Positions 50,415-56,400 of a DNA stretch of 64,000 bases are shown here, in pieces; position 1 is the stretch's first letter, and the number at the start of each line of letters is the position of its first letter. The DNA is from Escherichia coli O127:H6 str. E2348/69 (GTDB taxonomy: Bacteria > Pseudomonadota > Gammaproteobacteria > Enterobacterales > Enterobacteriaceae). Location: NCBI RefSeq assembly GCF_000026545.1, contig NC_011603.1; one strand, 5' to 3'. The position numbers were made by a program.

Positions 50415-53400
50415 TGACCACTTCACTTCCGAAAGAAAAGCACCTGACCGGCAAGATTTTTACTCAGCGCATTGAGCGCAATAACCTGACGCTGAGAACC
50501 AGAATCAAACGGCTGGCCCGCAAAACGCTCTGTTTTTCACGTTCTATTGAGCTTCATGAAAAAGTCATCGGGGCATTCATGGAAAAATGCATGTTCTACT
50601 AATTGGATGCATCACCGTTGAAATCACAATAACGATTTTTTTGTAAATATGCTCTCACATATGTAGGAATAGACTAGGTTGGCATTGAAACACATCTATC
50701 ATGACCATAATAAAGTAATTTTTTGATATGTTTATAGTTTTATATTAATTAAAACATATCTAAAATTGATAGTTTTAAAATTGCAAAATCCATATTTTGT
50801 TTGTAATGTTTAATCTGATTATATTGAGTGGCGTTTATTATGAAAAATAAATCAGGTAATTCTTATTATAGAGAAGCGGTCGATATTCATAGCTCACTTG
50901 AGCTTTCATTTATATTGCATAAATATCATTTGCGTGTAGATGAGAAGAAATCTCGAAATGTATTCAGCGCCATACGTGATGAGCTCATCCTTGATGGGGA
51001 TTCACGACAAAACTTAGCTACTTTCTGTCAAACATGGATTGATGATGAAATCCGTGAGTTGCTTAATTTATCTATTGATAGAAACATGATTTATAAAGAT
51101 GAATATCCACAAATGGCGGAACCTGAAGGTCGCTGTGTGCGTATGCTTTCCGATTCGTGGAGTTTCCCCGATTCGCGACACACCTTAGGTTGCTCAACCA
51201 TTGGTTCATCTGAAGCTGCTATGCTCGGCCGCTTGGCGTTAAAATGGCAGTGGTGTAAAAAACGCGAAGTACAAGGTAAATCAACCGAACCTGATTTGCG
51301 GTCCTGTGCAAATATGCTGGCATAAATTCTGCCGTTACTGTGATGTGAAATTGCGTAAAATTTCACTTTATGATCATCGCCTGATAATGAATGCTGAAGA
51401 GGTTTTGAAGCATGTCGATGAAAACACTATTGGTGTCGTTACGACTTTAGGTATTACTTGTTTTTATTTTTGTAAAGCAGATTGCGTTAGTGTTTTTAAG
51501 ATAAGTGTCAAGTTAATATTAGTTTTTATATTTATATCGTAATTATATGTTTCTATTTTAAAAATATTCGAGAGTATAAAAATGTCGAATGCTAATATCG
51601 CACCCAAAAGTAAGAAAATGACAGTGGGGACACTCGCTATCATGAATATAACTGCTGTAGTAAGTCTACGATTTATACCTTCTGAAGCAGAATACGGCTT
51701 AGGTGCCATTTTTTACTATACCTTTGCTGCAATTATGTTTTTAGTACCTGTTGCCTTTGTTGCGGCTGAGCTAGCTACAACATATCCACAAAAAGGGGGG
51801 GCATTTCGATGGATAGGAGAAGCATTTGGGGCTCGCTGGGGTTTTGTAGGAATGCTTATGACCTGGCTACAAGTCATCCCCTACTTTCCAACAGTACTGA
51901 CATTTGGTGCAGTCTCGGTTGCATTTATTGATGTTGATATGGGGGTGGCAGAATCAATTGCCAGTAATAAATGGTATATTTTATTTTTCGTACTATTTGT
52001 TTACTGGGGAGCTATTTGTGTTGCATTACGTGGCGTTGGTATTTTCTCGCAGGTATCTAAGTGGTGCGGTATTATAGGGACAATTATTCCAGCTATTATC
52101 CTTGTTATTCTTGGTTTCTCCTATCTGTGGTTCAGCGGTAAACCAGCGGTGATCCCATTAGGTTGGGGTGATCTTTTCCCTAATATAGCTAACTTCCAGA
52201 ATATTGTTCTTGCCGCCAGCATATTTCTTGCTTATGCAGGGATGGAAATGAATGCGGTCCATGTTAACGATTTAGATAATCCAACTAAAAAATACCCAAT
52301 TGCAATTACCATCGCTTCTATAGGTACTATTGCAATATTCCTGCTCAGTACTTTAGGGGTCGCCTTTATTATTCCTACAGATAAAATTAGTCTAACTCAA
52401 AGTTTGTTGGTTGCCTACGATATGCTGTTCGAATGGGCTGGAGTGCCATGGCTTGGCTCTGTGATGGCATTTATGCTAGCAATTGGCGTACTGGGTGGGG
52501 TGGTTACTTGGATTGCAGGGCCTAATACAGGTGTATTAGCGATCGCGAAAGCTGGTTATTTACCTAAGTTTTTCCAAAAAACCAATCGTCATGGAATGGG
52601 GCACCATCTGATGTTTGTACAAGGTATAATTGTCTCAGTTCTTTCTGTTACTTTTGTGATAATGCCTTCAGTTCAAGCAGCTTTTCAGATTTTATCACAG
52701 TTAACAGTTATGCTCTATTTAGTTATGTATATGCTCATGTTCGCTGGTGCTATCTATCTACGACATTCTCAACCTGATAAAAAACGCCCATATCGAGCCC
52801 CTGCTTTATTCTTCTGGGCAACACTTGGATTCTTAGGGTCTTTTCTGGCTTTTGTATTAAGTTTTATTCCGCCCGAGCAAATCCCAACTGGTAGTCCAAC
52901 CAGCTATGTTCTTTATTTGTTAGTATTAGTTGCCCTATTTTTATTAATTCCAATATTAATTTACGCCTTCCGAAAATCTGACTGGAAAGATCCAAACTCT
53001 GATTTCGAACCATTTTCTTGGGAAAAAAGAACTAGTAATTAAATTTTCAATAAGCTACAAAAGATGAGGTTAAATATGTTTAGTGCTGAATCTCCAATTG
53101 GTGTAATAGACTCAGGTGTAGGTGGATTGACATCGGTAAAGGAAATAATTAATTTGCTTCCTGGCGAAGATATTATCTATTGTGGAGATAATACGAATGC
53201 ACCTTATGGCAACCGTTCTGCCGATGATATCATCAGTTTGACTAAAAAAATGCTGACTTTTTTACAGTCAAGGAATGTCAAACTAGTTGCTGTTGCATGT
53301 AATACTATATCCTCAACTTTGGAATCCGAAGAATACAGCGGATATGCTAAGAGCTTTCCGTTTCCTATCTTATCCATCATTGAACCTGCAGTAGAAGATG

Positions 53401-56400
53401 TGATTCGCCAGCAGTATAAAAATGTGGGTATTATCGCTACCGAGTTTACTATTAAAACGGGGTGTCACAAAGAGCTAATAAAAAAATTGAACCCAACAAT
53501 AAATATATTTGGAGAACCAAGCAAAAATCTTGCAATGTTAATTGAGGAAGGTAATCTTAATGCTCCTGCAATATTGAATGATATCAAAAAACATGTTAAC
53601 CATTTAATTTCCCTCCATCCAGTAAATGAAATTATTCTCGGCTGTACTCACTATCCAATTGTTCAGAATTTATTTGAAGCAGTTGCACCGGATATAAAAT
53701 TTATTAATCCTGCACATGATCAGGCTATCTCTATTAAAAATCACTTGGGACAGCTAAATTTATTAAACTCCTCAAATATAGGAACTTTGCAAATAAATAC
53801 TAGTGGAAGTATGGAGATCTACAAAACGGTACTAGGGGAATTGAGCATTACGAAACCTCATACATTCAGTATCAGGCAGTTTTAAATTTATCCGGTGCAC
53901 CGTAAAACCCCGTCCTTCTGAACTGCACCCCAAAAGTTGGACACCAACTGAGTAAGGTGCATTTTATGGGCAAACCCAGTTACATACTGGGTAGTGCATC
54001 CAATTAGTAGAACATGTGTTTTTCGATAAACGCTCCGATCACTTTTTCGTGGATCTCAACTGAGCGTGAGAAGCAGATTGTTTTACGACCCAACCGCTTA
54101 ATGCGGGTGCGTAGCGTCAGATTATTACGCTCAATGCATTGGGTGAATATTTTGCCGGTCAGATGCTTATTCTTCGGCACCTCCCGGCCATAGCTGCCCC
54201 AGTCATCGCTGGTCAGCATGCCGATGTTGAAGGGTGTAAGCAGTGCCAGTAGCTCCCGGCACGTTTGATCGGTTCGGGGACCAAAAGTGTAGGCCAGTAC
54301 ACCGCCTGTTTTGGTGTTGTACGCGTACCAGATCCAGTGTTGCCGGGCTTTACTGCCAACGTAGCTCCATTGCTCATCAAGCTCGCAGATAAACGCCACA
54401 TCAGCATGGGTAACAGGCGAAGAAGTTATTCGCTTTGGCGCGAGTTTTTTAAAGTCCGGATGACGGTGTTACTACCAATTTTCAGTGTCCTGGCGGTATC
54501 GCGAACCCCGGCACCATTAAAGGCCATTTCAGTGATCAGCTCTTTCATACCCGGCTTACGTGCTTGATAAGTATAAGTGAGCTGAAACACACGGTGGCAG
54601 TCACGGCAGCGAAGTCTGTCACGGCCTTTAGGGTTCTGACCATGGCGGTAAACCTGAGCTGACTGACAACGGGGACAATGAATATTAACTCTGGCCATGA
54701 GATAACCTCAAAAACCCGTATTATACATCAGATTCAACTAATTAGAGGCATCACCTATCCAGCATTATATAACATACTAACAATAACTAAATTATAATAA
54801 TCACAACTTATAATCAAATAATAAACGCATAAAATCAACAATGATTTTTTCTGGTTATATTTATCTAAAAAACGGAATATTATGTAACCTATTATTTTCT
54901 AAGCGTAAATTTATTATGTGGTCAGACTAACAAACTTGCGTACCACCCGAAGAATATGCGAAAATTTAAGTATTCTTTCTTTTTTTATTTTTTCATTTTC
55001 TCTTTTCTTCTCTTTCCGGTTCTCTTCTTTTCTGGTTTTGGTTTTTTCCTTTTTATTTTTATTCTTTCTTCAGGGTTGTGCTAAAACACCAAAACATTTT
55101 TCACCACAAAAGCATCCAATCATCTTGCCAGACCAATCACCTTAACCGGATACACTGCCGGATATAATCCCACTAACACCCAGCCACCCCGCACCATTCC
55201 TGATAACTACCGTATTCAGGAAGTTGAGCCCTACTCAATTGATGAAATGTTCATTGATTTGCGGGGGATAAATCATTGCATCTCTCCGGAGGCTTTTGGT
55301 CATCAGCTCAGGGAACAGGTAAAGAGCTGGACAGGACTCACCATGGGGGTGGGCATTGCGCCTACAAAAACGCTGGCTAAAAGTGCACAGTGGGCAACAA
55401 AGCAATGGCCACAGTTTTCCGGTGTGGTCGCGCTGACGGCAGAAAACCGTAATTGGATCTTGAAGCTACTGGGGCTGCAGCCAGTTGGTGAGGTCTGGGG
55501 AGTAGGACGCAGACTGACGGAAAAGCTGAATGCGCTGGGTATTAACACAGCACTGCAACTGGCGCAGGCTAACACGGCATTCATCCGGAAAAACTTCAGC
55601 GTCATTCTTGAGCGTACGGTACGCGAACTCAACGGCGAGTCCAGCATATCCCTGGAAGAAGCACCACCGGCAAAACAGCAGATTGTCTGTAGTCGCAGTT
55701 TTGGTGAACGAATCACAGACAAAGATGCCATGCACCAGGCTGTTGTTCAGTATGCAGAGCGGGCCGCAGAGAAACTACGTGGGGAGCGTCAGTATTGTCG
55801 GCAGGTGACGACATTTGTACGGACATCCCCCTTTGCAGTAAAAGAACCCTGTTACAGCAATGCCGCTGTGGAAAAGCTTTCATTGCCACACAGGACAGCC
55901 GGGGCATTATTGCCGCCGCATGCAGAGCCTTAAACCATGTCTGGCGTGAAGGGTACCGCTATATGAAGGCAGGAGTCATGCTGGCTGATTTCGCACCATC
56001 GGGTATAGCGCAGCCGGGATTATTTGATGAAATCCAGCCCCGTAAAAACAGTGAAAAGTTAATGAAAACACTCGATGAACTGAACCAGTCGGGAAAAGGG
56101 AAAGTGTGGTTTGCGGGGCGAGGAACCGCCCCTGAATGGCAAATGAAACGGGAAATGCTATCGCCTTCGTATACAACACAATGGACTGAGATCCCCATTG
56201 CTTCATTCTGATATATCAGAATAATTTTTTCATTTTAAGACGCACATCATTCATTGCCTCCTGCACCGAATCAGTAGCAGAAGGAGGCATTTTTTCAACA
56301 GATTGCGAAGCACCGAGTTCAGTCAACACAGCTCTGATATCGGCCTGAGAAGGCTTCCATCCAGTCGTCTGACTGAGTAAGGTTACAACCTGATCTGCTG

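Follow-up and report, generated by a model that had tools for sequence, protein, structure and literature searches.

The window analysed here is a stretch of 64,000 nucleotides from Escherichia coli O127:H6 str. E2348/69 (contig NC_011603.1), and the subject of this study is a short AT-rich module within it, which carries the remains of a glutamate decarboxylase gene (gadB-like), a gene for a GadC-family antiporter and a gene for a glutamate racemase, with insertion sequences (IS) of the IS1 family on either side. By position in the window, the locus comprises the following features (ORF, open reading frame; GABA, gamma-aminobutyrate).

50426/50429-50616, plus strand: 3'-terminal fragment (~190 bp) of an IS1-family element, with the InsB C-terminus and the terminal inverted repeat ...GCATCACC (ORF 50411-50602; partial IS1 transposase on pMAR2 in RefSeq)
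50617-50839, plus strand: AT-rich stretch at the 5' end of the former gad operon, with which the cargo begins on its left side, and presumed promoter region of the whole unit (GC 0.27-0.32)
50840-51458, plus strand: glutamate decarboxylase (gadB-like) pseudogene (partial TIGR01788 matches; tblastn alignment in two frames; 'frameshifted; incomplete' in RefSeq)
51582-53042, plus strand: GadC-family antiporter, Gln/Glu:GABA subtype TIGR03813, 486 aa, intact (NCBIfam profile match)
53076-53885, plus strand: glutamate racemase of the MurI/RacE type, Gram-positive-like, 269 aa, intact (TIGR00067 match)
53989/53990-54756, minus strand: complete IS1-family element, ISEc30-like (InsA ORF 54426-54698, InsB ORF 54004-54399; RefSeq annotation)
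54757-55223, no strand: non-coding island tail, 32% GC, with a pyrimidine-rich tract and ending in TCAGGAAG, where the alignment with the chromosome of E. coli strain H2 (contig L008) breaks off

The cargo proper (50617-53988, ~3.4 kb) has a GC content of 37.1%, compared to 51.3% for the remaining window, and in a composition windowing of the whole stretch none of 264 equal-length windows elsewhere fell under 40.4%. The original prediction, made from the sequence by eye, had described a block of lower GC than its surroundings, and the block is indeed compositionally foreign. Low-GC foreign DNA goes on past the right IS1 (54757-55223, 32% GC), and the drop to a GC of 0.27-0.32 at 50617-50839 is found in the plasmid copy and in the chromosomal copy alike. 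There was no terminator-like site in the 103 bp 3' of the racemase gene, and an Rfam scan of 50300-55400 gave no match.

That the decarboxylase gene is dead had been predicted as well, with a frameshift near 51297 and a truncation near 51455. Both positions proved accurate, as direct reading of the DNA places these lesions (a 2-nt loss or equivalent frameshift, and the loss of the 3' part) at ~51296-51297 and ~51458. Against TIGR01788 the remnant covers just model positions 11-137 and 147-197 of 431, in two short ORFs in different frames, which score 136 and 59 bits where the cut-off is 380, and a full-length frame is lacking; a tblastn search with intact GadB aligned residues 14-156 in one frame (to 51310) and residues 142-208 in another (to 51458). 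Approximately residues 1-208 of ~465 are retained, and the lysine that binds pyridoxal phosphate (PLP) presumably lies within the missing part.

The antiporter is intact and matches TIGR03813 with 738.4 bits (cut-off 650), the other GadC models remaining under their own cut-offs (TIGR00910: 230 bits), so that the GadC-like permease of the original prediction is not an unrelated APC transporter; by this family assignment it is predicted to be a Glu/Gln:GABA exchanger. It aligns with residues 9-470 of the E. coli GadC structure 4DJI, i.e. the transmembrane core (E = 5e-55), and ends in a tail of 19 aa where E. coli GadC has its 41-aa C-plug, a region that is not alignable. The TIGR03813 family description, which names glutamate decarboxylase and/or glutaminase genes as neighbours, agrees with the locus, since the gadB pseudogene lies directly upstream, and with orthologues that lie by a gadB 3' end or by the glutaminase gene glsA; two orthologues (contigs L089 and L090) have neither gene within the flanks read. 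The E. coli acid resistance system 2 (AR2; gadA/gadBC, and the glutamine branch of YbaS/GlsA plus GadC) is alike in that a gene for a PLP-dependent decarboxylase is followed by one for an APC-family antiporter. Unlike in AR2, the antiporter here is of another subfamily (TIGR03813 at 738 bits versus TIGR00910 at 230), with the 19-aa tail instead of the 41-aa C-plug, the racemase gene is third in the row, the decarboxylase is dead, and the window has no GAD box match.

The racemase gene starts at 53076, with a GAGG Shine-Dalgarno sequence 6 nt upstream, and thus has its own ribosome-binding site 33 nt downstream of the antiporter gene; all its homologues are 268-272 aa long. Its product scores 178.1 bits against TIGR00067 (cut-off 146.65), with two narrower MurI models (NF002035 and NF002034) under their cut-offs, and retains all catalytic and glutamate-binding residues (the two cysteines in the CNT and GCTH motifs and the Asp-Ser pair). 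Invariant among 12 members of its subclade are D12 S13, P43 Y44 G45, C75 N76 T77, T122, E147 and C190 T191 H192. The peptide motifs VAVACNTI and ILGCTHY are common to all MurI enzymes, and a scan of viral contigs with the racemase found no relatives. By profile score and catalytic residues, then, what had been predicted as a MurI-like racemase appears to be a bona fide MurI-type enzyme. The nearest solved structures are Bacillus anthracis RacE2 (2gzm) and Bacillus subtilis RacE (1zuw) at 126 bits, compared to 78 bits for E. coli MurI (2jfn); with all three it shares the fold family, the two-cysteine catalytic motifs and the glutamate-binding residues, while E. coli MurI is more distant from it than the Gram-positive and actinobacterial enzymes are. 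This resemblance suggests an enzyme that is independent of the activator UDP-MurNAc-L-Ala. Unlike the MurI/RacE enzymes with which it was compared, it is an accessory, horizontally moving copy, fixed beside an antiporter gene and not in a cell-wall context.

Pairing of antiporter and racemase genes in other lineages

Metagenomes, Acinetobacter sp. ANC 4558 and Wohlfahrtiimonas chitiniclastica are the sources of the most similar racemases, at 58-80% identity. Among racemases 58-100% identical to the one in the window, a GadC-type gene is adjacent in seven of seven lineages, E. coli included (i.e. on every contig that could be read), and the co-occurrence elsewhere by which the original prediction was to be judged is thus established. 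The third partner varies, being gadB in three lineages and glutaminase in one, with none nearby in two. The arrangements outside E. coli are as follows.

Acinetobacter sp. ANC 4558: gadB 3' end - gadC - murI, in the order and with the 33-nt spacing of the window
Enterobacterales contig L005: gadB 3' end - gadC - murI, in the order of the window with 37-nt spacing; neighbouring genes at least 90% identical to 'Klebsiella sp. BIGb0407'
Contigs L089 and L090: gadC - murI, with no decarboxylase remnant in the 430-850 bp upstream (tblastn with GadB, none at E <= 1)
Wohlfahrtiimonas: murI convergent with glsA - gadC
Contig L091 (57% GC): GadC of the other subfamily, TIGR00910, followed by murI

The two genes usually lie on the same strand, 33-50 nt apart (five lineages), and the pairing spans two GadC subfamilies and three gene arrangements. 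In the two relatives whose operon is apparently intact (L002 and L005), the contig ends inside gadB, possibly due to a second near-identical gadB copy that broke the assembly.

The association has a clear boundary on either side. Racemases at 51-56% identity are not linked to GadC, but lie by cmk - der, glycosyltransferase genes or other genes and look like actinobacterial housekeeping enzymes. On the side of the antiporter, orthologues 85-93% identical are present in four other lineages, and the branch at 85% identity or more, the window included, always has a racemase gene directly downstream; the GadC relatives at ~70% identity (Desulfovibrio, Ignatzschineria) are paired with glutaminase and have no racemase nearby. 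A 269-aa gene upstream of gadC in Ignatzschineria was suspected to be a racemase and, when checked, proved not to be one. The TIGR03813-type loci in which gadC stands with glsA and/or gadB (Desulfovibrio intestinalis, Ignatzschineria, Wohlfahrtiimonas; presumably also the gadBC-glsA locus of Brucella) are otherwise like the one in the window, being of the same subfamily, at ~70% identity, and adjoining a glutaminase or decarboxylase gene.

The original prediction had taken a racemase in the place of a working decarboxylase as a sign of repurposing. In relatives, however, the racemase is already the third gene of gadB-gadC-murI operons, and these apparently intact operons, together with the pairing in seven lineages, mean that the pairing is ancestral and no by-product of decay. 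In fact, orthologous pairs are saturated at synonymous sites (proportion of synonymous differences 0.70-0.87), with a ratio of non-synonymous to synonymous rates (dN/dS) of ~0.02 for gadC, the identity ranks of gadC and murI are broadly parallel, and the GC content of the pair ranges from 31% to 57% according to the host. Saturation and this spread in GC indicate that the linkage is old and has been maintained, and that it does not reflect the recent spread of one cassette. The direct low-GC donor to E. coli appears from these comparisons to be unsampled.

A possibly related arrangement was seen in Isoptericola halotolerans (contig L095, 6001-12828), where an actinobacterial racemase 53% identical stands with a choloylglycine-hydrolase-family gene, an Xaa-Pro dipeptidase-like amidohydrolase gene and an ABC transporter, and where a glutamate decarboxylase homologue lies 5.4 kb downstream; it may be a looser form of the antiporter-racemase association.

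The locus itself is already known, in that RefSeq annotates its genes and one table of expression data includes them, but the pairing appears to be undescribed: a search that left most subscription literature outside its reach found no link between GadC and glutamate racemase beyond incidental co-mentions.

A segment shared with a chromosomal island at the eut site

The module is 100% identical to the corresponding part of pMAR7 and pMAR2 (strain E2348/69), which are adherence-factor (EAF) plasmids of enteropathogenic E. coli (EPEC). Of 5426 complete E. coli genomes, 143 carry it; the matches number 144, of which 134 lie on chromosomes, with a typical identity of 98.6%. In strain H2, whose chromosomal copy was read in detail, the order is eutR - integrase fragment - helix-turn-helix gene - IS5 - two hypothetical small ORFs - gad pseudogene - gadC - murI - IS1 - tail - eutA. 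Homology between plasmid and chromosome starts at 50617, the first low-GC nucleotide, runs through the right IS1 and a further 467 low-GC bases, and ends at 55223. This tail of 467 bp was found in 144 E. coli genomes, and each of the chromosomal rows listed shows eutA as an annotation under the match.

The right end of the shared segment falls on an att-like core. The TCAGGAAG at 55216-55223 of the window and at 11601-11608 of L008 is made up of the stop codon of eutA and five further nucleotides, and the same 8 bp have been reported as the duplication made by integration of CPZ-55, one of the K-12 cryptic prophages, after the eutA stop codon (PMC6379469). Both marks of a CPZ-55-type insertion are therefore in place, i.e. 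the position directly after the stop codon and the 8-bp TCAGGAAG at the junction. The chromosomal copies resemble CPZ-55 (at the K-12 eutA/eutB junction) in this site and in a segment that ends in TCAGGAAG, and differ from it in their cargo and, in H2, in having just a fragment of an integrase and in missing eutBCLK; the likeness is one of site. Within the tail, a pyrimidine-rich tract at 54970-55070 carries degenerate short tandem repeats (periods 5-16), which could be an arm-type binding region near an attachment (att) end. In H2 the island (L008 2983-11601) lies between eutR and eutA, and eutB, eutC, eutL and eutK are absent, as a result of which such strains should be unable to use ethanolamine, a statement that concerns H2 only.

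At the left boundary, the chromosomal cargo begins at the same nucleotide as that of the plasmid and follows directly on CAGCATCACC, in which GCATCACC corresponds to the 8 nt at the outer end of the IS1 inverted repeat. The chromosomal copy keeps just the last 8-10 nt of this terminus, and the sequence upstream is unrelated, with ~47-49% GC. The presence of an IS1 tip at the same nucleotide in plasmid and chromosome places an IS1 at the left border of the cargo in their common ancestor, from which the chromosomal lineage has lost all but the tip and the plasmid lineage keeps ~190 bp. On the plasmid the end of an IS3-family (IS911-like) element in turn cuts this fragment off on the left side, and in unrelated plasmids that share the IS nest to its left homology ends at window position 50425-50429.

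It follows from the homology past the right IS1, and from the low identity of the two IS1 sequences, that the module is no IS1 composite transposon. The inverted-repeat arms (50429-50616 and 53990-54177, 188 nt) are 78% complementary (79% identity by blastn), and the left fragment and the right element are different IS1 isoforms and not two copies of one. The right IS1 is flanked by TACATACTG / ACATACTGG on one side and TATCCAGCA on the other, and its flanking 9-mers differ, which bears out the predicted lack of a target duplication, and the same element occurs with the same junctions in the H2 chromosome. Like composite transposons such as Tn9, the locus has inverted IS1-family sequences on either side of its cargo. 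Unlike them, it has a stub of ~190 bp for one arm instead of two complete near-identical copies, shows no target duplication, and belongs to a mobile unit that, judging by the chromosomal copies, would not end at the outer IS ends but 467 bp beyond the right one. The original prediction had described the module as bounded by IS1, and this holds for the left edge, which is an IS1 terminus, and not for the right, since the unit common to ~134 E. coli chromosomes spans the right IS1 plus 467 bp.

The chromosomal copies also date the loss of the decarboxylase. The same frameshift and truncation are present in H2 and in nine of 11 contigs from human-gut metagenomes (the nine that reach gad), which means that the decarboxylase was dead before the plasmid gained the segment. 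The 11 contigs came from a DNA-pattern scan of metagenomes for EPSxNLAMLIE, and all are E. coli copies of the module, without new contexts. As gad is dead in H2 and in the nine contigs, these copies lack the combination of working decarboxylase and antiporter that makes a functional AR2-like operon, and the module could work only with the GadA/GadB of its host.

Position 55224 onward is the gene for a plasmid Y-family polymerase, umuC, without its first ~94 codons, and an intact umuC on another plasmid reads TCCCGCAG at the junction, with five of eight matches to the att core. We infer an origin of the plasmid copy in the eut-site island, possibly by integration into umuC followed by IS-mediated loss of the left part, or by recombination. 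Part of the EAF virulence plasmid of EPEC E2348/69 is on this reading a second-hand fragment of a chromosomal eut-site island.

Selection on the pair and its possible roles

The plasmid copy and one chromosomal copy differ to very different degrees along the segment, as follows.

Upstream region: 3.2% substitutions
gad pseudogene: 2.1% substitutions
gadC: 0.41% (6 in 1461 bp; 4 synonymous, 2 non-synonymous)
murI: 1.36% (7 synonymous, 4 non-synonymous)

The resulting dN/dS of ~0.15 for both gadC and murI indicates that the two intact genes are under purifying selection; the counts are small, and the direction is that of continued constraint. Moreover, the Ler regulon of E2348/69 has been charted by microarray, with pMAR2_096 (putative glutamate:gamma-aminobutyrate antiporter) reported as activated by Ler 3-fold in mid-log phase, and pMAR2_097 (putative glutamate racemase) as activated 2-fold in mid-log and 3-fold in late-log phase (PMC3891560), so that the pair is transcribed and co-regulated. 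The present analysis supplies a context for these two genes, which lie outside the locus of enterocyte effacement (non-LEE). The module as a whole may still be in mid-decay, as had been suggested, but the selective constraint on gadC and murI and the expression reported for them make this less likely.

As an account of the whole locus, we consider the following probable: a fragment of an island at the eut site, an old loss of gad, and a conserved antiporter-racemase pair that feeds the glutamate pool. The sequence comparisons show the 4.6 kb from 50617 to 55223 to be a fragment of an E. coli genomic island whose site is immediately behind the stop codon of eutA; on the EAF (pMAR2/pMAR7-type) plasmid of EPEC the fragment is inserted in a truncated umuC. 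The island had earlier gained a three-gene operon (gadB - GadC-like antiporter - glutamate racemase) from a low-GC donor, and in the E. coli lineage gadB was destroyed by the frameshift and a ~780-bp 3' deletion before a copy reached the plasmid, the IS1 downstream of the racemase likewise having inserted before that event. The mechanism is the inferred part of the account. The antiporter would swap external glutamate or glutamine for a cytoplasmic product, and the lost decarboxylase step would come from the host's GadA/GadB and glutaminase YbaS, which are established parts of E. coli physiology. The racemase, as an unregulated enzyme of the Gram-positive type, would equilibrate D- and L-glutamate in the pool fed by the antiporter, through which D-glutamate could reach the proton-consuming enzymes that are specific for the L form, and the wall would still be supplied with D-glutamate during the drain on L-glutamate. 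We infer, from sequence and gene neighbourhood, that the role of the racemase is most likely to couple D-glutamate to the L-glutamate pool handled by the antiporter.

That the antiporter could do without a linked decarboxylase is supported by what is known of its relatives. Purified GadC of E. coli carries out two exchanges, Gln for Glu and Glu for GABA, and when truncated of its C-plug it transports glutamine up to pH 8 (PMC3663535); to carry this last behaviour over to the antiporter with the 19-aa tail is speculation by analogy. Francisella GadC works without its GadB (PMC3894225), and, by analogy, it and the Gln/Glu exchange of E. coli GadC would lend support to a dispensable decarboxylase. 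In Francisella, too, the transporter is kept and functional though gadB is truncated in some subspecies or dispensable, which makes it a precedent for an antiporter that outlives the loss of its decarboxylase; unlike here, there is no linked racemase, and the role is one in oxidative-stress defence (PMC3894225). This likeness is drawn from the published description.

Several points weigh against this account. The dN/dS of ~0.15 rests on just 6 and 11 substitutions and on one chromosomal copy, and with one gene already lost and an IS graveyard all around, relaxed selection is conceivable. The activation by Ler is modest and could be a non-specific relief of H-NS silencing of AT-rich DNA. Promoter-like hexamers at the module were not commoner than in shuffled sequence, and no match to the E. 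coli GAD box was found in the window (consensus with up to 3 mismatches). The module is rare, occurring in 2.6% of complete E. coli genomes and on ~10 plasmids. Just five of the eight nucleotides at the umuC junction match the att core, and entry into umuC may have been by integration or by recombination. What couples racemase to antiporter is the neighbourhood of their genes in seven lineages, a number of them represented by a single metagenome contig, and the paper on GadC selectivity is silent on stereochemistry (PMC3663535).

A more far-reaching role for the pair, which seems doubtful, is that antiporter and racemase form a self-sufficient two-gene system of precursor/product exchange for the enantiomers of glutamate, GAD-type systems being textbook modules of precursor/product antiport. 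The antiporter would import D-glutamate, which is abundant in the peptidoglycan debris of guts and carrion, and the racemase would convert it to L-glutamate, which would then be exported by exchange or be decarboxylated or deamidated by a partner enzyme of the host; the reverse would be secretion of D-glutamate. If true, this would be the first antiporter system with a racemase as its cytoplasmic partner, and it would explain both the persistence of the pair where no decarboxylase is nearby and its survival of the loss of gadB in E. coli.

It is unlikely, on the other hand, that the module is merely decaying passenger DNA, in which antiporter and racemase have no role in E. coli and are intact for lack of time, their adjacency elsewhere reflecting one mobile cassette. 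This would fit the loss of one gene out of three, the many IS elements in the region, the rarity of the module in E. coli and the frameshifts in two low-coverage metagenome copies. However, substitutions are five times as dense in the pseudogene as in gadC, with a dN/dS of ~0.15 for both intact genes (plasmid versus one chromosomal copy), RefSeq annotates gadC and murI under the match in all 40 of the best E. coli records shown, and both genes are transcribed and co-regulated in EPEC. A single recent cassette is also at odds with orthologous pairs that are saturated at synonymous sites and adapted to host GC contents of 31-57%. Should the pair be functionless after all, the locus would still be a clean, datable case of the stepwise decay and IS-mediated trimming of horizontally acquired DNA.

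Quite unlikely as well is that the racemase just serves the cell wall as another MurI, a source of D-glutamate for peptidoglycan, and is found near glutamate transporters through a shared substrate only. Its score above the TIGR00067 equivalog cut-off and its full set of catalytic residues agree with such a role, as does the fact that its next relatives (51-56% identity) look like the housekeeping MurI of actinobacteria, by cmk - der or by cell-envelope glycosyltransferase genes; besides, Acinetobacter species carry more than one murI. Against this stands an adjacency that is strict in seven of seven lineages, across two GadC subfamilies and three arrangements, and an operon spacing of 33-50 nt in five lineages, which argues for co-expression with the antiporter and not with genes of wall synthesis.

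Finally, that an IS1 composite transposon brought the cargo, after which the decarboxylase decayed on the plasmid and the antiporter was repurposed with the racemase, is largely refuted and most improbable: inverted IS1-family sequences do flank gad' - gadC - murI, and the left edge of the cargo abuts an IS1 terminus (plasmid) or its remnant (chromosome), so that an earlier IS1 move is possible, but the arms are 78-79% identical, one of them a 190-bp stub, without target duplications, the homology with the chromosome ends not at the right IS1 but 467 bp further on, at an att-like core, the chromosomal copies carry identical gad lesions, which are hence older than the plasmid copy, and other genera already have the racemase as the third gene of apparently intact operons.

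With the fragmentary island and the dead gad gene, the E. coli instance is a trimmed remnant, and it is the conserved pair that is worth testing: a racemase subclade that is always tied to GadC-type antiporters provides a testable hypothesis on the use of D-glutamate by bacteria.

Plasmid surroundings of the module

From 41400 to 63800 the window is at least 99.9% identical to pMAR7, except for one extra insertion of 1374 bp. This is an ISEc21-like element of the IS110 family (48735-50108), with a transposase ORF of 358 aa (49016-50092), which sits inside an IS911-like transposase gene of the IS3 family; as the sole structural difference from pMAR7 over this range, it makes the window a close variant of pMAR2/pMAR7 that corresponds to neither record. 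To the left of the module lies a nest of IS elements (45800-50430; an IS110-family fragment, IS30 and IS911-like pieces), which occupies the place where related IncF plasmids have a DinI-like gene, umuD and the 5' end of umuC. To its right, the umuC homologue at 55224-56211, which resumes at ...VEPYSIDEMFIDL, is a pseudogene, in which RefSeq flags a frameshift too.

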